A DNA stretch of 64,000 nt, taken from positions 45,945 to 109,944 of IMG/VR virus record IMGVR_UViG_3300022562_000354. The stretch is one strand, 5' to 3'. A program made the translations under genes and the position numbers. The notes beneath the pieces are model-generated. The model saw only the letters and a program-made list of their open reading frames with translations. It did not search any database and was not told where the DNA came from. Positions 1,539 through 10,390 of the stretch are shown piece after piece; positions within the stretch are counted from its first letter, which is position 1, and every line of letters begins with the position of its first letter. The DNA comes from a virus.

Positions 1539-1545
1539 TACACCG
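1539..1545 (-). promoter_or_regulatory. CGGTGTA motif, 11 nt upstream of the ATG of 643..1527
   Basis: The same heptamer occurs at the same spacing at 3814..3820. Confidence 0.5.
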
Positions 1546-1556
1546 ACACCAATTCC

Positions 1557-3269
1557 CTACTTTTCACGGAGCGCGAGAACAAGGTCCCGTAGCTCGCCTT
1601 CCCCACGGTCAAACTTGAGCGCCCCTACGGCCGCCTCTCCGATGACCTGGTCGATAAGCCCCTTCTTTTTCCTCAGTTTTTTCACGACCTTATGGTCGAT
1701 AGTCTCGCGATCCTTACCCTTCTTACCGGGACGCTCTGCGATGAGGTGGATGGCGAGCACCTTCTGGTGAGGGCTGCCGATGCGGATCATGCGTCCGAGG
1801 AGCTGGACGTAGTTCCCCCAGGACCACGGGGAGTCGAAGAAGATCATCCCAACGGCCGCCTGGAGGTTGATGGCCTCGCTGCCGGCGTCGGTGATGAAGA
1901 TGACCTTCACGTCGCTGTTGAGGTCTTGGAACTTGTCCTGAGCCTTCTTGCGGTCGGAGTCCTTGTTGATCTTCCCCGTGATGGCGACGCTCTTGATGCG
2001 CTCCGCCGTGAGGAGCTTCTGGAGCCTCCCTACGAGCTTCTCGAAGCGGGTGTAGATGATGACCTTCTCGCCCTCAAACTCCTCTTTCAGAAGGTCGATG
2101 AGAGCCTGCTCCTTAGCGCTCTTGCCCTCGAAGTGCCCAACCCCGATGTCCCCCTCCTCGAACTTGAGGAGCCCGATCGAGTCGACGACCTCTTGCGTGT
2201 AGATGAGGCTCGTTAGCTCCTTCGTTTCCTTGTAGTCCCTCACGTCCCCGTCCCCAAATTCGAGGATGCCAGTGAGGGCCTCTTGGTACTTCTTGTCCTC
2301 CGCTGGGCTCAGCTCGCAAAGGACTTCGCGGGTCGTGAGGGAGGGTAGCTCGTCGCTAACCAAGTGCTTGGGTCTTCCGTAGAAGTAGGGGTCGATGGTC
2401 TCTCGAAAGTGGTTCAGGTTCTTGTACCCAACCACGATGGGGATCTTGGCGCCGCCCTTCACCCGCTGCATCTCGGTGACGCAGTAGACGTTGATGAAAG
2501 CGGTCTTGGACGAGAACGTACCCGGTCGGATGACTTGGTAGATTCCGAAGCCTTCCATGAGGTTGTTCTTCAGGAGGGTCGCCGTCAGACCCCAACATCG
2601 GAACGAACGCTCCGAAAGAAACCTGCACGTCTGGTGCGTCTTCGTGCTCGGATTCTTGAAGGCGGTCGCCTCGTCGAAGATGGTGACGACCTTGGGGATC
2701 CGGTGAGTCAGAGCGTCCAGGTAGCCTCGGCCGGTCACCGCTTGCGTACCCGGCTTGGAGCCCGGCGCTGGGGGTGTCTTGGTGATGCCCTCGTCCCAGT
2801 CCTTGACCATCGAGTGGTAGTTCGTGATGAGGACCGAAGGACCCTCGCTCTTGAACCATGCTTGGTAGGACTCTTTGCGTTGTTTTGGGGTGCCGGTCCC
2901 GATGTACGTCGTGATCCCGGTCGTGAACTTCTCGATCTCGCTGGCCCACTGGCGAATGGCCGACTTGGGACAGACGACGATGACCTTGATCGAGGAGTCA
3001 CGCTCCCAGAGATAGCAAAGGGCTCCGATGGCCTGGACGGTCTTGCCGAGTCCGGTGCCATCACCAAGGACCATCCGGTTGACCATGAGCAGGTGGAAAA
3101 TCCCCTGGCACTGGTAGTACCGGAGCTTGAAAGGCTGCGGTGTCCCGTCGAGACCTATGAACTCCTGACGAAACATCTTCGTCGGGTTCAAAGCCATGGT
3201 CTTGGAAGCTCGGACTTGCTTGAGCTGCTCGTAGACAGGGTTCGTTGTAACAGAGGCCGTCATGGTCAA
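1557..3269 (-). CDS. SNF2-family (SF2) helicase/ATPase
   Basis: LRYYQ, GDGTGLGKT (motif I), VVCPKS, IFDEAT (II), LTAT (III), KVIIYTRF, AGSEAINLQAA (V), QLLGRMIRIG (VI). Confidence 0.92.
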   Translation of the reverse strand: MTMTASVTTNPVYEQLKQVRASKTMALNPTKMFRQEFIGLDGTPQPFKLRYYQCQGIFHLLMVNRMVLGDGTGLGKTVQAIGALCYLWERDSSIKVIVVCPKSAIRQWASEIEKFTTGITTYIGTGTPKQRKESYQAWFKSEGPSVLITNYHSMVKDWDEGITKTPPAPGSKPGTQAVTGRGYLDALTHRIPKVVTIFDEATAFKNPSTKTHQTCRFLSERSFRCWGLTATLLKNNLMEGFGIYQVIRPGTFSSKTAFINVYCVTEMQRVKGGAKIPIVVGYKNLNHFRETIDPYFYGRPKHLVSDELPSLTTREVLCELSPAEDKKYQEALTGILEFGDGDVRDYKETKELTSLIYTQEVVDSIGLLKFEEGDIGVGHFEGKSAKEQALIDLLKEEFEGEKVIIYTRFEKLVGRLQKLLTAERIKSVAITGKINKDSDRKKAQDKFQDLNSDVKVIFITDAGSEAINLQAAVGMIFFDSPWSWGNYVQLLGRMIRIGSPHQKVLAIHLIAERPGKKGKDRETIDHKVVKKLRKKKGLIDQVIGEAAVGALKFDRGEGELRDLVLALREK

Positions 3270-3802
3270 TCCCTGGTCCGCCAGAGGTCCGCCGAGATAG
3301 GTGGAAGCCGCTCGCCAGCCGCAATGGCTTCAAGCCGCTCAGCCTCCATTCTAGCCTCTATCTCCTGCATTCGCCTCAAGTCCTCTTCCGTGGGCTCAGG
3401 CTCCGCGAAGCGTCGGTCCTCATCGGCGAGTACCCGCTTCACGTGGTCGATGAAGGCTTGAGGGGGCTTGACGTTGTGGGCCTCGATGTAGTGAACGAAC
3501 CCTTGCGGCCAAATGAAAGCCGCATCCCCTTGGCACGTAGAACCGTTGTGGGTGCCGCAAATACGGCAAGATGACCAACCACGCCATTGAATGAGGTCCG
3601 GCTGGTTCTTGACGTAGGACAGCACGATGGCCTTTTCTTCGGGATCCCAAGACGGGTCCACGAAGTCCCTTGGATCTGGAAGAAAGTCGTACCTCTTGTC
3701 ATGGTACGACCCTTCTGCGGATCTCCAGTAGCCGAGCGCTTGACGACCCTGAGCTTCGCGGGGAGTGTTGGGGTGAGCGACGAACATGGAGGGAAGAGAC
3801 AT
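3266..3802 (-). CDS. Hypothetical protein, putative metal-binding (CxxC...HYxxxH)
   Basis: CRIC and WPQGFVHYIEAHNVKPP motifs. GAGG lies upstream and the ORF overlaps the SNF2 start. Confidence 0.65.
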   Translation of the reverse strand: MSLPSMFVAHPNTPREAQGRQALGYWRSAEGSYHDKRYDFLPDPRDFVDPSWDPEEKAIVLSYVKNQPDLIQWRGWSSCRICGTHNGSTCQGDAAFIWPQGFVHYIEAHNVKPPQAFIDHVKRVLADEDRRFAEPEPTEEDLRRMQEIEARMEAERLEAIAAGERLPPISADLWRTRD

Positions 3803-3813
3803 CCCTCGCTTAC

Positions 3814-3820
3814 TACACCG
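3814..3820 (-). promoter_or_regulatory. CGGTGTA motif, 11 nt upstream of the ATG of 3266..3802
   Basis: Second copy of the motif at 1539..1545. It sits at the boundary between the lysis and replication modules. Confidence 0.5.
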
Positions 3821-4432
3821 TCACCAGAAGGCGAAGTACAACCCAGCTTGGGGGTTGTGGAGGAGCGTCCACCACGAGAATGCGTAGCCACCGTACGCCC
3901 CGAAGTTCTTGGTGAGGTCTACCCCAACGCCAGCTCCGACCGAACGGAAGCCAGTCGCCACGTTCAGGTTGAACTGGCGGTAGTGAACGAAGTCCCAGAG
4001 GATGCCAACGTCCACGGCTTCTCCAGCCGTGTCCTGCTTGAAAGCATCGACGAAGAGGAAGCTCCCCGCGAACTTGGGTCGGAATCGGAAGCCCCAAACG
4101 GGAGGCTCTCGCTTGGCTACAGCTACATCGAGCTTCCCTTGAGCTTCGACTTCGTAGTTGCACCACGACATCTTCACGGTGTACGGACGTGGCTGCGCTC
4201 CCGAATAGTAGACGCGACCCTCTACGTCCGTGACGATGACAACCGGATCAAGCTGAAACTTCGGCTTTTCCGTCTGGAGGCACTTCTTCTCGCGGAGGAC
4301 TTGGAGGAGGACTTCCATGTCCTCCTTGGGCACGCAGGTAGCTCCGTCAGGACAGGTCTCTTGGGCTTGCGCGTCCACGGGCAGCGTGAAGGGGGCGATC
4401 ATCGACACGAGAAGAGCCCTCCAGCGCATCAC
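3821..4432 (-). CDS. Secreted protein with C-terminal amphipathic beta-strands (putative outer-membrane beta-barrel protein)
   Basis: Signal-peptide-like N-terminus ending AQA, four Cys in the N-terminal half, and about six alternating strands ending ...AGLYFAFW. The start may be the ATG at 4429. Confidence 0.6.
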   Translation of the reverse strand: MMRWRALLVSMIAPFTLPVDAQAQETCPDGATCVPKEDMEVLLQVLREKKCLQTEKPKFQLDPVVIVTDVEGRVYYSGAQPRPYTVKMSWCNYEVEAQGKLDVAVAKREPPVWGFRFRPKFAGSFLFVDAFKQDTAGEAVDVGILWDFVHYRQFNLNVATGFRSVGAGVGVDLTKNFGAYGGYAFSWWTLLHNPQAGLYFAFW

Positions 4433-4989
4433 CCACCGTACTTTGCAAGTAGGTCATCAACCTTGGCGGCGGGGATGCCCGACTTGTCCTTGACCGTCAC
4501 GATGTGGACATCCGGCTTGACCACGACGACTTGGTCCACGTCCTTGTTGGTGACCCCGTCAGGCAAGACGATCTCGGTAGGCTTGTCTTTGCCAGGCTCC
4601 GTGAAGACCACCTTCTTGGGGTCGGAGAAGAGCCCCGGCTCCGTGATGGGCACCACGACCGCCTGAGTCATCCCCTTCGAGTCCGGGGTGCCTGGCTGGA
4701 TGAGCTTTCCGTCTGGGCCAACACGGTCTGGATCGACCGTGTTGGCAACGTCTACGACGGACCCTTCACCCTCCGGGTCCTTCTTCCCGAGGAGCTTCCC
4801 GATGAGCCCACCGATCTGAAGCTCCTTGAAGCCCATCGAAACGAGCACGATCGCCACGATGACGAGCACCACCACGAGGATGGGACCGATCGCCTTCGAG
4901 GTGACCCACGAGAAGGACGACTTGATCGACTCCCAAGCACGGGAGCCCCAAGAGGGCTTCTCAGGGGCGGGAGCGGGGGACGGAGCCAT
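4429..4989 (-). CDS. Single-pass membrane protein (i-spanin-like position)
   Basis: The ATG at 4989 (MAPSPAP...) follows GAGG directly after the holin stop. One strong TM segment, ILVVVLVIVAIVLVSM. The track's longer start at 5328 would overlap the holin. Confidence 0.65.
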   Translation of the reverse strand: MAPSPAPAPEKPSWGSRAWESIKSSFSWVTSKAIGPILVVVLVIVAIVLVSMGFKELQIGGLIGKLLGKKDPEGEGSVVDVANTVDPDRVGPDGKLIQPGTPDSKGMTQAVVVPITEPGLFSDPKKVVFTEPGKDKPTEIVLPDGVTNKDVDQVVVVKPDVHIVTVKDKSGIPAAKVDDLLAKYGG

Positions 4990-4991
4990 GC

Positions 4992-5474
4992 TCAGTCCTC
5001 GTTGCCAACCCCGCCGACCTTGGGCTCGTCCTTGGCCTCTTCCGCCTTGGGCTCTTCCTCTGCCACCGGGCCGGGGGGATCCGAGGTCATCGGAGGAATC
5101 GAGGGCGTCTCGACCTTCACTCCCTTCACGCCAACCTTCACCCCCTTCATGGGACCGCTCTGAACCCACGACCGAACACGGGCGTAGATCAAGGCGGAGA
5201 AAGCCCCGCAGATGGCTCCGTAGGCGATCCGACCCGAGAGCGAGCCATGAACCACGGCAGGCCACACAAAGGTCTTCATGACGACCCCGAGAATGGCGCC
5301 GTTGGCGATGGGGCCGATGGGGAGCCACACCTCTCGCCAGATCCGGTTCTGCTTGGCGTCCTTCCAGAAGCCCTCGACAACCTTACGGATTACGTAGGTC
5401 ATCAAGTAGATGGCGAGGCAGAGAATGAGAGTCTGTGAATTGACGAAAGACTCTACGATGTTGTCAAGGTCCAT
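4992..5474 (-). CDS. Putative holin (three TM segments, charged C-terminal tail)
   Basis: Hydrophobic segments TLILCLAIYLMTYVI, WLPIGPIANGAILGVVM and IAYGAICGAFSALIY. GAGGAG RBS. Lies downstream of the tail genes. Confidence 0.7.
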   Translation of the reverse strand: MDLDNIVESFVNSQTLILCLAIYLMTYVIRKVVEGFWKDAKQNRIWREVWLPIGPIANGAILGVVMKTFVWPAVVHGSLSGRIAYGAICGAFSALIYARVRSWVQSGPMKGVKVGVKGVKVETPSIPPMTSDPPGPVAEEEPKAEEAKDEPKVGGVGNED

Positions 5475-5498
5475 AAGACCCTCCTCAAGTGCCGAGCG

Positions 5499-5513
5499 TA
5501 TAAAAACAAACCG
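5499..5513 (-). promoter_or_regulatory. Putative late promoter, CGGTTTGTTTTTATA
   Basis: AT-rich motif about 25 nt before the holin start. Related copies precede other structural genes. Confidence 0.45.
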
Positions 5514-5519
5514 GCGAAA

Positions 5520-5828
5520 CTACCCGGCCTTCACGTCTACCGAGAGGGTCTCTGCTAGCTCGACAGAGTGGTTTTGGGGCGTTCGAGCCGGTTGTGCAGG
5601 CGGAGCTGGCGGGGGAGGCGGGGCCTCGGGCTTCGGGCAGATGTCATCCACCTTCCCGGACTCCCACCGAGAGACCCAAGCCAGTCTCTCGTGGAGGTCT
5701 TTCCTCTGGGGCTCCGTAAGGTGCGGATTAGAGAGGAGGATGTGGAGTTGCTGCCTGGCTTGGGCCGCCCCCTTCGCTCGAATGTCCGCAGGGACCTCGT
5801 GAATGGTGATCCTACCCCTCGCCATCAC
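5520..5828 (-). CDS. Hypothetical protein with Pro-rich C-terminus
   Basis: Coupled to the stop of 5825..10390 and fills the gap before the holin. Confidence 0.6.
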   Translation of the reverse strand: MMARGRITIHEVPADIRAKGAAQARQQLHILLSNPHLTEPQRKDLHERLAWVSRWESGKVDDICPKPEAPPPPPAPPAQPARTPQNHSVELAETLSVDVKAG

Positions 5829-8800
5829 AAGCTCCCAGGCGGCAACTTGTTGGACAGCGTGATCGTGGCCGGGTCAACCTCGTACTTCACGTGGTTCATG
5901 ACGAGAGGGTGGCCTTCGATGCGGTAAAGCTCGGCGGCTGAAACACCCTCGCCGGTCCCGTTCGTCCCGATGTACAGCGAGGACGAACGAGGAACGTTGG
6001 GTTCCAACGTGTGTGTCGTGGTCACGATCGCCATCATCAACTCATCACCAGCCGAAGCCTCGTTCCCACCCACGTTGGTAACCGAGTTGCGGACCAAGAA
6101 GGCGCGACCGACGATGACCCTGGACGAAGGGTTGATAACGTCGAGGTTGTCGTAGACCGTGAAGACCTCACCGCCCGGCCGGTCCCCGCTAGCCGTGAAG
6201 GCCGACCCTCCTCGGAAGGTCCGGAAGTTGGTGAGGAGCGTGTAGTTGCCCGACTCCCCGTCCACTTGGACCATCACCTCACCCGCCTGACCCGACGAGA
6301 GCGAGGCAGGGAGGAGGTTGATCTCCTCTTGCTCCAAGAGCTTCGTCTTCGCCAAGCTCGTCGTACCGAAGCCCGCCCCTACCTTGTCGAGATAGGTGAG
6401 CGAAGCCTTGCTGACGTTGGTGAAGAAGCCTCCCCGGAAGTCCTTGTCCTTCCAGAAGCCACCGATGGGGAGTCGCTCCGAGCAACCGAGGTACTCAGGG
6501 TTGACCTCCGAAGCTGTCGCCCCGGTGAGAGCCCCCATGAGGATCCTTGGACGCGGATCGATGCCGGTAACCGGGGGGTAAGCCCCTTGGTCCTCAAAGC
6601 CTACGTTTCGGATGTCGTAGGCGTTCGCAGGAACCACGTCCCCAGAGAGTCGGCCGGTCCCCAACGTCGTGATGAAGCCGACCGAGGCTAGGATCTCCAG
6701 AGCCTTTTGGTTCGGCCTGGTGAGGCTGGCTTCGTCGAGCTGTGCCGAGGCGAGTTGGTAGGCCGTCGTCGTTTGGAACGGACCGGGGCTGTACCCAAGG
6801 TCAAGGTACGTAGACTGGCTGCCCCACGGGTCGCCCATGTACGGCGTACGAGAGTAGTTGATGAGAGCCGTATCCGAGGCGCTCATCGGCCCCGGCAAGA
6901 TCGACACGGGACCAAAGATGGCGACGTTCGTGTTCGTCGCCCGGACGCCCGTGTTGGCCTGCGTACGGTCTCGGGAGAGAATCAACCGGAAGGGTTTGTT
7001 GAGGTCGAACGACCCTCGGTCAAACCCGAACAGCGACGCCTCGATGACGTAGTGCTTCGACGAGAAGGTCGGGATCGGAACGGGAGACTTGCTGAGATCC
7101 AGAGCGTCCGCGTTGATGATGAACGTCGAGTCACCGTCGTCGTCGATCTCGATCCAGAAGGTCGGCCCCTTGAAGTTCTGCCGGAGCAAGTTGACCGCCC
7201 CGACACCCAGCGACTCACGGGTCGAGGCGTTGACCCCCGATCCGTTGGCCTTGTAGTCGCTGGCCTCGTACACGGCAAAGAGCCGGGCGATGCCGTAGAA
7301 CGGCGGAAGCTCCAACCCTTGTCGACCAAGACCGCGAGAGTCCGTGAAGAACCGGGCGCCCGCGTGGGTGATACCGCCGAACGAGAACGTCGAGTTGTAC
7401 GTCGCAGGAACGATGGTCAAACCGGAGAAGTTGCCGGTGGACATCGAGGCGTACGAGAGGGGGACGTTCGACGTGTAGTTGATGTACTGCTTGCAGTGGT
7501 CGGAGTCCGTGACCGACGTGTTCAAGCCTTCACGCGACTGAAGCATGAAGTTGAGTCCACGGTGGAACACCGTCCCGTTTTCAGGGAGAATGGGAGCGTG
7601 AACCGCACCCCAGCCGGGCACCAAGTGCCTTGGGAGGGTCACGTAGAAGTTCTTGCGCTCCGCATCGGAGTCCCCGGACCCGGAGAAGAGTCCAAGGGGG
7701 TCGACCGTTCCCCACTTGGCCGTCGTTCCGTCCAGCTTCTTCAAGGGCATGAGCCCTTGCGTGTGGTAGACGGAGTAGGTGATGTTCGTGTCGGTCGGGA
7801 TGGGTCGATCGACGTCGATGGTTGTACCCGTGAAGCTCACGACTCGGTAGTGACCCTGAGCCACCCCACTTGGGATGTAGAGCAGGTCGTCTTCTACGAT
7901 GCCCGCAGCGATGAAGCTGGCCGCACCGTCCGTGAACGTCGTGGACCCAACCGAAGACCCCGTCGTACCCGTCGCGAACGAGGACGTGTAACGGTTCGTG
8001 TTGGACCCATCCTGAGTCCTGATGCCGGTTGGCGTCGCCGGGTAGGCGATACGACGGAACGGGGTGACGATGACCGTCTTGCTCCCCAAGTCCGCGTACG
8101 CCTCAGCCGTGACCGGGAGAAGACCCTTGAAAGTCTCGTTCCGGAACTTGCTCCAGAGAAGTGCCCACCCCGTACGCATCGGGAAGTTCGTAGAGGGCAC
8201 CGCGCTCGGTTGAATCAGGAGGTCCGAGTTGGGGTTGAACAGGGTGATGTTGTGGATCGAGTCCGGCCGCCTCGATAGACCACGCCCCGGCCCGTACTGG
8301 AGATGGGCCGTGATGTAGAGGGTCTGGGCGAAGGGGAAGGGTACACCCGCCCCCTTGAACTCGATCACGACGTCATCGACCGCATCCGGGTTGGACGGGG
8401 TGATGGAGTACCGATGGGGCGGGAGAGGCTCCTCGTACCCGTCGATCCGAATTTCAATGGCCCCACGGCCCTTTCGGATGACGTACGTGCTCGTAGTGGC
8501 CGGAACGACTCGGTCTACAACGAGAGCATTTGCGTCAGTAACACTCTCGACGCGGTAGTCTCCCTTGGCGGCACCCGTGAAGATGACCAGCGTGTCACCC
8601 GGCTCTACCCCAGGAACGAGGAAGTCCACGGTGGAATCCGTGAACGTCGTAGACCCATCAGAGATGCCGTTGGCACTCTCAGCGGGCACCTCGTTCAAGA
8701 AGCGGACTTGGTCGGCATCGGCGCCAGGGACCGTGTTCTTGAACTGAGAGACGGTGACCTTGATGCGGTCACCAAGTCCATCCCCATCCGCCAGCTCAGT

Positions 8801-10390
8801 GTCCCACTGATTTGCGGCTCGCTGCCGCGTTGTGAGGGCGTTGATGCTGAGCGACCACGAGGTACCGACCGGCTGTTGCGCCGGAATGACGACCGGGGCC
8901 GTGAACGGGGTGCAGAGGATCTCCACCTTCTGCTGGACCGCTGCATCGGAGAAGACCATGCGGACGTTGTCGGGGGTATCGAGCCCCGTAACACCCAACC
9001 CGGCCGCCGAACTGCTGATCTTGTCCTCGTAGAAGACGATCGGACCTTGGGGGCCGACACCTGAACGCTTCCAGTTGGACCTGAGCTGCCCCTTGAGGAG
9101 CTTGTCCAGGTTCGCCGACAGGAGCGTCTGGTAGTCGAAACCAGCCGGGTTGACGATGTGCCGCAGGTCGAGAACGTCCGTGGCAGCGATCTGATCCGAG
9201 AAGAGCCCATCCGGACGGCCGGAGAGGATCTTGATGGTCGAGCCAGCCGCGTGAGCCTCGGCGATCGAGCCGTTTACCCCTCGTACGAGGCCCTGAACGG
9301 CGGTCCCGCTGATCGACGAGTACGTCATGTACTCGTCGTTGATCTGAATCAGGACCGGCGAGGCAGGAGCCAAGGGGAGGGCGATGTTGTCCGCTGAGAT
9401 GAGAGCGAGGGCGGTCGAGCTTTCCGTGATGGAATTTAGAAGGGTCGGGACCGTACTGAAGGTCTTGATCCCCGTCCTATCCGTCGCCGTTGGGTTACGG
9501 TTGAACGACCCGTTGAGATTCTGGCTGGGGTCACCGGCCCAAACGACCGAGTTGCGACGGAACACGACGCAAAGGGGGATGGCGTACGAGTAACCATCCA
9601 CGGTCCCAAGGTCGTTCGCCGTACCGTCACCAGCTCGCCAGAGACCGGGATCCCCCAATTCCTGACGCATGTTCGTGAACGTGTACGAGGTCGTAGCCGT
9701 AGCCGCCCCTTGAGCCTTCACGATCGTCGGGTCGAACCCGCTCGGGTACGTGGCAAGACCGATGAGGCCCTTCACGACTCGGATGCGATACTGGATCTGA
9801 ACGCGCTGCGTCGTTTCGACCCCGATGGCCGGGTCTTGGATGTCGTCCGCGAGGAAGCTGAAACCACCCTCGACGTTGCCGTAGCGGTAGATGCCAGATG
9901 AGCTGGGCTTGTTGAGGCTGGAAGGCCCCGGTGGGATCCTCGCCTGCCAGACTTCGAGGAACACGAAGTCCGCTCGGAAGTCACCGCTGTTCGACGGGGG
10001 TGGGTCGAGTGCGATCTTGTTCCACGTGTCCGCGTTGTTTGGAGAGCCCGGAGGGGTGCCGGTCTTGGTGCCGGACACGGGGATGAGCCACCCGTTGACG
10101 TTGGCCCACATGATCGAACGGGTCTCACCCGTTCGTTGACGACCGAACTGGAACCAGTTTGACCAGATCGGGTTCGTGAGGAAGTCCTTGGACGGGTTGG
10201 TCTCGTTGCCGAGAAAGCCAGAAGGGCTCCCTCGGAGCACGAGCTGCTGGCGCCAGTCCTGCGAGAGCTGCTGTAGAAGGTTCAGCTCGCTGTCGAGCGG
10301 GGGCTTTCCTTGTTGCCACAAAACAAGCGAAAAGTTCGCTTGCTTCGGGTCCAAGACCCGCGAAACCCCCGTGCCGAAGTTATCACCCAT
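5825..10390 (-). CDS. Baseplate/tail-fibre-associated structural protein (DUF4815/DUF6519-like N-terminus)
   Basis: FSLVLWQQGKPPLDSELNLLQ N-terminal motif. Paralog of 20627..23266. Carries two TFTD..A.F...G modules. Confidence 0.7.
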   Translation of the reverse strand: MGDNFGTGVSRVLDPKQANFSLVLWQQGKPPLDSELNLLQQLSQDWRQQLVLRGSPSGFLGNETNPSKDFLTNPIWSNWFQFGRQRTGETRSIMWANVNGWLIPVSGTKTGTPPGSPNNADTWNKIALDPPPSNSGDFRADFVFLEVWQARIPPGPSSLNKPSSSGIYRYGNVEGGFSFLADDIQDPAIGVETTQRVQIQYRIRVVKGLIGLATYPSGFDPTIVKAQGAATATTSYTFTNMRQELGDPGLWRAGDGTANDLGTVDGYSYAIPLCVVFRRNSVVWAGDPSQNLNGSFNRNPTATDRTGIKTFSTVPTLLNSITESSTALALISADNIALPLAPASPVLIQINDEYMTYSSISGTAVQGLVRGVNGSIAEAHAAGSTIKILSGRPDGLFSDQIAATDVLDLRHIVNPAGFDYQTLLSANLDKLLKGQLRSNWKRSGVGPQGPIVFYEDKISSSAAGLGVTGLDTPDNVRMVFSDAAVQQKVEILCTPFTAPVVIPAQQPVGTSWSLSINALTTRQRAANQWDTELADGDGLGDRIKVTVSQFKNTVPGADADQVRFLNEVPAESANGISDGSTTFTDSTVDFLVPGVEPGDTLVIFTGAAKGDYRVESVTDANALVVDRVVPATTSTYVIRKGRGAIEIRIDGYEEPLPPHRYSITPSNPDAVDDVVIEFKGAGVPFPFAQTLYITAHLQYGPGRGLSRRPDSIHNITLFNPNSDLLIQPSAVPSTNFPMRTGWALLWSKFRNETFKGLLPVTAEAYADLGSKTVIVTPFRRIAYPATPTGIRTQDGSNTNRYTSSFATGTTGSSVGSTTFTDGAASFIAAGIVEDDLLYIPSGVAQGHYRVVSFTGTTIDVDRPIPTDTNITYSVYHTQGLMPLKKLDGTTAKWGTVDPLGLFSGSGDSDAERKNFYVTLPRHLVPGWGAVHAPILPENGTVFHRGLNFMLQSREGLNTSVTDSDHCKQYINYTSNVPLSYASMSTGNFSGLTIVPATYNSTFSFGGITHAGARFFTDSRGLGRQGLELPPFYGIARLFAVYEASDYKANGSGVNASTRESLGVGAVNLLRQNFKGPTFWIEIDDDGDSTFIINADALDLSKSPVPIPTFSSKHYVIEASLFGFDRGSFDLNKPFRLILSRDRTQANTGVRATNTNVAIFGPVSILPGPMSASDTALINYSRTPYMGDPWGSQSTYLDLGYSPGPFQTTTAYQLASAQLDEASLTRPNQKALEILASVGFITTLGTGRLSGDVVPANAYDIRNVGFEDQGAYPPVTGIDPRPRILMGALTGATASEVNPEYLGCSERLPIGGFWKDKDFRGGFFTNVSKASLTYLDKVGAGFGTTSLAKTKLLEQEEINLLPASLSSGQAGEVMVQVDGESGNYTLLTNFRTFRGGSAFTASGDRPGGEVFTVYDNLDVINPSSRVIVGRAFLVRNSVTNVGGNEASAGDELMMAIVTTTHTLEPNVPRSSSLYIGTNGTGEGVSAAELYRIEGHPLVMNHVKYEVDPATITLSNKLPPGSL

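Follow-up and report, generated by a model that had tools for sequence, protein, structure and literature searches.

The DNA analysed here (the window, 64,000 nucleotides) is the last 64 kb of a 110-kb virus record of IMG/VR, contig G000, which has a CheckV completeness of 23% and is a fragment of a huge phage. Near the start of the window lie two overlapping genes whose products may form a spanin-like bridge across the cell envelope: TM186, encoding a 186-amino-acid (aa) protein with one transmembrane (TM) helix, and OMP, encoding a secreted 202-aa protein that resembles an outer-membrane beta-barrel. An earlier note, made from the sequence alone, had described them with a preceding holin-like gene as a three-gene cassette ending in a coupled secreted protein, and all of these open reading frames (ORFs) are present as described, on the minus strand. 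The genuine genes in this part of the window all lie on the minus strand, in the order tail-fibre-like gene (1521 aa), 102-aa gene, holin-like gene (160 aa), TM186, OMP and then a 178-aa gene. TM186 starts 2 nucleotides past the stop of the holin-like gene, and the ATG of OMP overlaps the TGA of TM186 (ATGA), indicating translational coupling. The cassette has the following features:

3821 to 4429, minus strand: OMP, secreted outer-membrane beta-barrel-like protein, 202 aa plus stop (AlphaFold2 model with a mean predicted local distance difference test score, pLDDT, of 89.7; about 100 clusters at 50% identity)
4364 to 4429, minus strand: predicted Sec signal peptide of OMP, residues 1-22, without a lipobox (alignment of 35 relatives)
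4106 to 4363, minus strand: N-domain of OMP, residues about 23-108, predicted to be periplasmic; one helix (35-53) and a small sheet (alignment and AlphaFold2)
3824 to 4096, minus strand: C-terminal domain of OMP, residues 112-202, six amphipathic strands (DSSP), modelled as a closed n=6 meander barrel
3824 to 3850, minus strand: beta-signal-like C-terminus of OMP, Q-A-G-L-Y-F-A-F-W
4429 to 4989, minus strand: TM186, 186 aa, predicted to be anchored in the inner membrane, in an i-spanin-like position (ORF and translation)
4828 to 4893, minus strand: TM helix of TM186, residues about 33-54 (hydropathy; helix in the model of a fused homologue)
4432 to 4461, minus strand: C-terminal motif of TM186, V-D-D-L-L-x-K-Y-G-G (nearly every homologue carries it at its very end)
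4992 to 5474, minus strand: holin-like membrane protein, 160 aa (GAGGAGG upstream; PHROG phrog_1299 and hydropathy)

OMP appears to be exported without becoming a lipoprotein. Its signal peptide has a predicted cleavage site between AQA and QETC, and the lipobox pattern that was tested at the conserved cysteine ([LVI][ASTVI][GAS]C) was absent from 89 of 90 full-length relatives, the one match lying in the h-region, off that cysteine. A lipoprotein would have spoken against the earlier note's suggestion that a barrel protein replaces the o-spanin; OMP, unlike an o-spanin, is not one. Its four cysteines (C26, C32, C50 and C90), all in the N-terminal third and invariant across the 35 aligned relatives, probably form two disulfides. 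In the C-terminal domain, bulky hydrophobic residues make up 83% of one strand face (face A) family-wide and charged residues 0%. Face B has 31% Gly, 21% charged and 19% polar residues; R115, K119, D171 and N175 are invariant there, with R117, D140, N154 and N156 close to invariance.

The consensus beta-signal of the machinery for beta-barrel assembly (BAM) is polar-x-G-x-x-aromatic-x-aromatic, which the C-terminus of OMP fits. The final residue is W or F in 83 of 90 relatives, and the strict form G-x-x-hydrophobic-x-aromatic occurs within the last 14 residues in 64 of the 90. The hallmarks of a BAM-dependent barrel, namely a Sec signal, amphipathic strands of dyad-repeat type and an aromatic-ended beta-signal, are thus all found in OMP, and the description that the earlier note had given of it (no lipobox, four cysteines, about six amphipathic strands, an aromatic C-terminus) is borne out by alignment, scan and model. 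OMP itself matched nothing in Pfam at E up to 1, and the OMP_b-brl family (PF13505) matched five of 87 family members, all below threshold (best E 0.0024); no outer-membrane barrel family matched at its curated threshold.

A single-chain AlphaFold2 model of OMP, built from the window protein and 35 relatives, gave six long strands (residues 112-200) at pLDDT 95-98 and closed them into a small barrel. The closure, obtained again in an independent model of a natural TM186-OMP fusion, P0123 (pLDDT 83.9), fits the beta-barrel type that the earlier note had suggested but lends no support to its oligomeric barrel: six strands close in a monomer, where eight or more strands or an oligomer would be usual. 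Against 48,161 PDB representatives, VIA-align ranked BBn6 (9xzt) first for the C-terminal domain (Z 9.1, root-mean-square deviation 2.4 A, 80 of 90 residues) and first again for P0123 (Z 9.2). The next matches, well behind at Z 4-6, were de novo transmembrane barrels and natural outer-membrane proteins, among them KdgM, OmpW, OmpU, CarO, TamA, OmpA and NspA; the outer-membrane proteins scored Z 4-5. BBn6 is a de novo six-stranded meander barrel with n=6 and S=8 (PMC12478100). It is water-soluble with a hydrophobic core, whereas the phage domain is hydrophobic outside and polar or Gly-rich inside, as in a membrane barrel and the reverse of the design; the likeness, at 5-6% identity, is geometric only. 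Foldseek against the PDB gave nothing at E <= 0.001, and a profile search of PDB sequences gave no match. The ESM Atlas returned unannotated clusters and one PagL lead (0.85), and the only significant match in BFVD was an uncharacterised 324-aa protein of an uncultured phage, which fits the fused model better (E 1.4e-6) than OMP alone.

With small outer-membrane barrels such as OmpX, OmpA-TM, PagL, PF13505 members and Lom/Ail, OMP shares a Sec signal, an antiparallel meander of dyad repeats, a charge-paired polar interior, an aromatic-rich exterior and a beta-signal. Unlike them, it has six predicted strands rather than at least eight, an extra N-domain with predicted disulfide bonds and an obligate inner-membrane partner. 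The strand count could alternatively mean that six strands are what each protomer contributes to an oligomeric barrel (2 x 6 or 3 x 6 strands, for example), the kind of barrel that the earlier note had proposed. Tethered by TM186, such a barrel would form a pore or channel; pore formation, rather than membrane fusion, would then breach the outer membrane, or the barrel would export something. Six strands are indeed too few for any known natural monomeric outer-membrane barrel, all six bear a lipid-facing hydrophobic face, and conservation is highest on the polar, charge-rich inner face. However, two independent monomer models close on themselves at pLDDT 95-98 and match a crystallised n=6, S=8 barrel over most of the domain, and so glycine-rich an inner face is as expected for a very narrow, filled barrel, not an open pore. 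We consider the oligomer quite unlikely.

TM186 has one TM helix, 19 prolines and no cysteine. A conserved K-E-L-Q-I-G-G-L-L-G-K-L motif directly follows the helix, and the motif at the extreme C-terminus, which in fused ORFs abuts the OMP part directly, is a candidate docking peptide for the N-domain of OMP. The TM186 half of the P0123 model consists of the TM helix, coil and short strands; long helices are absent, consistent with the single-TM protein with a beta-rich, non-coiled-coil soluble part that had been read from the sequence. As in an i-spanin, a single N-terminal TM domain is clear. Across 43 homologues, the N-terminal flank of the helix mostly carries two to four Lys and Arg residues and the C-terminal flank mostly two, a positive-inside count that modestly favours an N-in orientation. 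At least 263 relatives were found, on contigs of up to 620 kb, and none is annotated. TM186 matched no family in Pfam, PHROG or NCBIfam, and its soluble part had no match in the ESM Atlas.

Natural fusions provide strong evidence that TM186 and OMP work together across the periplasm, as spanins do. An exhaustive search with OMP recovered distant relatives, proteins of 335-410 aa whose C-terminal halves match OMP and whose N-terminal halves are TM186-like, with the TM helix, a QIGG-type motif behind it and a D-x-L-K motif. One type of fusion (P0123, P0207 and P0208, with P0213 in the cluster of P0207) has no internal signal peptide and has lost the first cysteine pair while keeping the second; identities to P0123 go down to 53%, the sources are JGI, ENA and Logan, and one form occurs on five contigs of up to 64.5 kb. 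In this type the barrel domain can leave the cytoplasm only behind the N-terminal TM helix, so the soluble part of TM186 and OMP would share the periplasm. The other type, in at least seven clusters at 50% identity, has both halves in one ORF of 351-410 aa and keeps an in-frame signal-peptide h-region and AxA site (P0159, P0174, P0178, P0179, P0173, P0153, P0135 and P0152), which suggests an internal start or an unusual topology. A periplasmic C-terminal domain of TM186 is thus favoured by the signal-free fusions and complicated by the signal-keeping ones. The latter ORFs may be in-frame nested genes, in which a restart at the D-[LM]-L-K of TM186 would supply the n-region. No locus encoding a fused form was found in the viral-contig scans, and the metagenome scan gave split pairs only.

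A tethered, incomplete barrel could instead act as a decoy BAM substrate that stalls on BamA late and so weakens outer-membrane biogenesis and integrity. The beta-signal is a nearly perfect match to the consensus, there are fewer strands than the minimum, and an inner-membrane tether would hinder release from BAM; inhibition of BAM by beta-signal mimicry is also an established killing mechanism of lectin-like bacteriocins (10.64898/2026.09.25.754295, PMC13463100). Yet the idea is purely speculative, a block of BAM would be slow relative to the timescale of lysis, and the closed-barrel model, being well packed and highly conserved, suggests that the end product folds stably. We regard a decoy as very improbable.

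TM186 and OMP are conserved at about 29-85% identity. None of the roughly 100 OMP clusters is annotated; their members in IMG/VR lie on contigs of up to 529 kb, two of them rated complete. No relative of OMP was found in a scan of one genome per species in GTDB, and tblastn with OMP and the fused form gave no match in 50,697 GenBank phage records. Synteny was assessed in 44 viral loci (43 with both genes assessable) and nine metagenome loci with both assessable, which together leave 45 non-duplicate loci with both genes assessable. TM186 lies upstream of OMP in every one of these 45, with a gap of at most 1.9 kb. By tblastn and ORF calls, the order in the viral loci is tail-fibre-like gene, small gene, holin-like gene, TM186, OMP, SNF2 helicase gene and a 294-aa gene; in the nine metagenome loci, TM186 directly precedes OMP, with the tail-fibre-like and SNF2 flanks present wherever contigs extend far enough. 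TM186/OMP belongs to the core genes of a lineage of uncultured huge phages, and the arrangement of the cassette is far beyond chance. The flanking features in the window are:

5825 to 10390, minus strand: tail-fibre-like protein, 1521 aa (phrog_1101 tail protein, E 1.5e-4; synteny in nearly all related loci)
5520 to 5828, minus strand: small conserved gene, 102 aa, no assigned function (tblastn matches in most near relatives); its start overlaps the stop of the 1521-aa gene
3814 to 3820, minus strand: CGGTGTA motif, directly after the OMP stop and 11 nucleotides before the ATG of the next gene
1557 to 3269, minus strand: SNF2-type DNA helicase downstream of the module (phrog_62 DNA helicase, E 6e-88; synteny)

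Support for the holin-like gene is less uniform. A stretch of 45 nucleotides with a GAGGAGG site separates it from the 102-aa gene, and its product has two strong hydrophobic segments (residues about 13-33 and 49-70), a weaker Gly/Ala-rich third (about 73-97) and a tail that is Lys-rich and then acidic. Three TM helices, as the earlier note had described for the holin-like gene, are therefore plausible, with a weak third segment. The protein matched phrog_1299 'holin' at E 6.6e-5, and the Pfam family Phage_holin_5_1 (Hol118-like) at E 0.018, its 15.8 bits falling below the cut-off of 22.4. A holin homologue or small multi-TM ORF lies just upstream of the pair in about 32 of the 45 loci. The conserved linkage of three genes that the earlier note had looked to is hence complete for TM186 and OMP and partial for the holin, which is missing next to the pair in the most distant clades.

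Within 3200-6200 of the window, neither a sigma-70-like promoter nor an intrinsic terminator was found. The next gene begins 18 bases beyond OMP, with the CGGTGTA motif between them. Of 20 copies of this motif on the 110-kb contig, 16 lie within 34 nucleotides upstream of an ORF start, 11 of these at 8-11 nucleotides. The motif is a candidate phage promoter that may produce near-leaderless mRNAs, and a new transcription unit likely begins at the copy after the OMP stop; from this placement, the OMP gene looks like the last gene of a late structural transcription unit. CGGTGTA also occurs at 1539-1545 (minus strand), 11 nucleotides before the ATG of the 294-aa gene, and genes preceded by it often have no Shine-Dalgarno sequence. 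By count alone the motif is not enriched in the window (7 copies versus 5.6 expected).

The pair resembles two-component spanins such as lambda Rz/Rz1 (PMC6139136) in its adjacent and overlapping genes beside a holin-like gene, in a first product with one N-terminal TM domain and a probably periplasmic chain, in a second product that is predicted to be exported to the outer membrane, in the predicted bridge between inner and outer membrane, and in occurring as bimolecular and unimolecular forms. It differs from them in that OMP is a non-lipoprotein with a signal peptidase I type site and a predicted barrel and beta-signal as its anchor. TM186 also lacks the coiled coil and cysteines typical of spanins, being coil and strands in the fused-relative model, and with no cysteine no intermolecular disulfide is possible. 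Further differences are the absence of sequence similarity and of an adjacent endolysin, and a far higher conservation. More than 120 i-spanins have no coiled-coil prediction (PMC6139136), so that a coiled coil is typical of spanins rather than strictly defining, and a beta-rich periplasmic chain has a precedent in the T1 u-spanin (PMC6139136).

The P0123-type fusions invite comparison with that u-spanin, T1 gp11: each would be one chain anchored in both membranes, with a strand-rich periplasmic part and a Cys-free linker. Unlike in T1 gp11, the polarity is reversed (TM domain N-terminal, outer-membrane anchor C-terminal), the anchor is a barrel and not an N-terminal lipid, and there is no sequence similarity. 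A unimolecular spanin has an N-terminal lipoprotein signal and a C-terminal TM domain, whereas the fusions have an N-terminal TM domain, a C-terminal barrel and no lipobox. By analogy, the split and fused forms may mirror the divide between two-component and unimolecular spanins, here with homologous parts.

Taken together, these features point, at about an even balance, to TM186/OMP as a spanin analogue with a beta-barrel outer-membrane anchor. Since OMP is not a lipoprotein, we describe the pair as working like a spanin rather than as being one. The confidence goes no higher because the functional reading is drawn from context, the holin assignment is weak, some loci have no holin beside the pair, and an endolysin is lacking in the vicinity. 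A lytic role is suggested by position, at the end of the late block and beside a weakly supported holin. Of the non-canonical two-component outer-membrane disruption system that the earlier note had put forward, the non-lipoprotein component with its barrel hallmarks and its linkage to TM186 hold good, the fusions support joint action of the two, and the lytic part is a matter of that position.

In the mechanism that we propose, the pair would form an envelope-spanning complex of a huge phage infecting a diderm host. One helix would hold TM186 in the inner membrane, N-in/C-out, with its Pro-rich, strand-forming chain crossing the periplasm. OMP would be exported by Sec, its N-domain would be oxidised to two disulfides, and its six-strand domain would be inserted in the outer membrane through the BAM-type beta-signal. 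The DDLLxKYG peptide at the C-terminus of TM186 may then dock on the periplasmic N-domain of OMP. Both proteins would be made late, together with the holin-like protein, and the bridge would stay inert while the peptidoglycan is intact; after degradation of the wall it would break down the outer membrane through fusion or a local rupture. The complex would thus be a functional analogue of Rz/Rz1 with a beta-barrel instead of a lipoprotein anchor, and the fused relatives would be its unimolecular version. The analysis itself shows the gene structure, conservation, synteny, fusions, signal peptide, lack of a lipobox, amphipathic strands and predicted fold; from these we infer the topology, the outer-membrane insertion, the TM186-OMP interaction, the late timing and the lytic function.

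The pair may alternatively be a non-lytic envelope module that remodels or masks the cell surface, serving to exclude superinfection, mask receptors or stabilise the envelope through a long infection, comparable to lambda Lom and Bor or T5 Llp. Phage outer-membrane barrels do exist, and the weak structural matches include proteins of uncultured phages annotated as Opacity, OMP_b-brl or OmpW. The lambda lom gene sits right after the tail-fibre genes, and the pair lies in a similar place; the lack of an adjoining endolysin, the incomplete adjacency to a holin and the core-like conservation would also fit such a module. Exclusion and moron genes, however, are sporadic, whereas this pair is found in every assessable relative at a fixed position. 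Such proteins need no inner-membrane partner, still less a covalent fusion to one, and the pair shares the orientation of the late structural block and is coupled to it, not under its own promoter. A non-lytic role seems to us unlikely.

Several observations weigh against a spanin analogue. The pair evolves like core genes, while spanins usually evolve fast and are patchily distributed, and neither experiment nor homology ties it to any proven lysis protein. To our knowledge, a six-strand monomeric outer-membrane barrel has no natural precedent, the minimum known being eight strands, and the barrel model may therefore be an artefact of single-chain folding. Most fused ORFs keep a cleavable-looking internal signal peptide; barring an internal start, a single chain running N-in/C-out is hard to square with this. 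Both PHROG and Pfam support the holin call weakly, holin adjacency is absent in about 13 of the 45 loci, all of the most distant clades included, and no endolysin adjoins the pair, relatives having yielded muralytic domains only at distances of tens of kb.

Searches for other lysis genes bear on the same question. Endolysin domains were found neither in the cassette and its immediate neighbours, where Pfam and PHROG searches agree with the earlier note that the cassette holds none, nor on the rest of its own contig; the cassettes of relatives likewise contain no endolysin. The Phage_lysozyme, Amidase_2 and VanY families are absent from the record itself and from up to five relatives, and a search for GH19 was uninformative, its control matching in no control genome. 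The muralytic domains that relatives do encode, SLT domains within ORFs of 617-693 aa and one M23 peptidase, may belong to virion enzymes:

G001, 82364 to 82516: SLT domain
G002, 263918 to 264082: SLT domain
G004, 139849 to 140013: SLT domain
G005, 274174 to 274347: SLT domain
G003, 344903 to 345199: M23 peptidase domain in a 376-aa ORF

A canonical spanin pair elsewhere in the genome would have been a further argument against the earlier note's proposal. A heuristic scan for a lipobox and a suitable neighbour covered the 110-kb contig and the complete 512-kb relative G003, and in neither did it find a canonical i-/o-spanin pair or a u-spanin. One credible lipoprotein of G003 was rejected as a spanin (it has no type II TM partner and lies about 290 kb from the cassette), and four other lipobox matches there were rejected as being embedded in large structural genes or having too short a mature part. 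The lipoprotein (115 aa, in the region L060:8145-9333) is Pro-rich after the lipobox cysteine. It overlaps the beginning of a 296-aa ORF with motifs that, by eye, resemble a papain-type cysteine peptidase, and nearby on the opposite strand is a LemA-like TM protein. A TonB- or TolA-like reading of the pair was set aside, there being no family match and a six-strand barrel being unable to act as a gated transporter. A diderm host is a reasonable but circular inference; at the ends of the relative G005, whose record is flagged 'provirus', no host sequence was readable.

Every spanin described so far uses a lipoprotein anchor (PMC6139136), and a barrel-anchored spanin was not reported in the literature that we searched. 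Roughly 15% of phages infecting Gram-negative hosts lack a recognisable spanin, and the only characterised spanin alternative given in that preprint is a cationic peptide (bioRxiv 10.1101/515445). If the spanin-analogue reading is correct, TM186/OMP would be a third solution to outer-membrane disruption and a handle for annotating lysis genes of huge phages, which are now essentially unannotated. More tentatively, and with considerable doubt, the pair may represent a new spanin class anchored by a natural six-stranded monomeric barrel, as pair or fusion, inserted by BAM. Such a barrel would be smaller than any known outer-membrane protein, with a fold so far found essentially only in de novo design, and a test case for the minimum size of a BAM-assembled barrel. 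Even if it is non-lytic, the pair is an envelope module, everywhere labelled 'hypothetical', that a large lineage of uncultured phages conserves universally as part of its core.

In some relatives, inserts split the holin, TM186 and OMP genes (L001:9273-9935, L002:6891-8186, L004:8506-9585 and L012:5981-7711). They comprise a NUMOD3 homing-endonuclease-like gene and several DnaJ-domain proteins, one DnaJ being fused to the holin-like ORF, and the inserted ORFs were on these grounds rejected as endolysins. In a divergent clade (L049:6077-7517 and L052:6076-7528), two ORFs lie between the tail-fibre-like gene and the pair; by eye they resemble a response regulator and a histidine kinase, and they come after a 147-149-aa protein with a C-terminal hydrophobic segment. 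The structural region of the genome is almost wholly unannotated, with ten mid-sized ORFs at 10445-62275 of the window lacking a Pfam match at E <= 0.001. For the three cassette proteins and their neighbours, Pfam, PHROGs and NCBIfam gave only the weak holin match and a DUF7919 match (E 3.4e-7) in the 178-aa gene (3266-3802, minus strand), directly 3' of OMP. This gene is common only to the closest relative, L001, which places it outside the conserved module.

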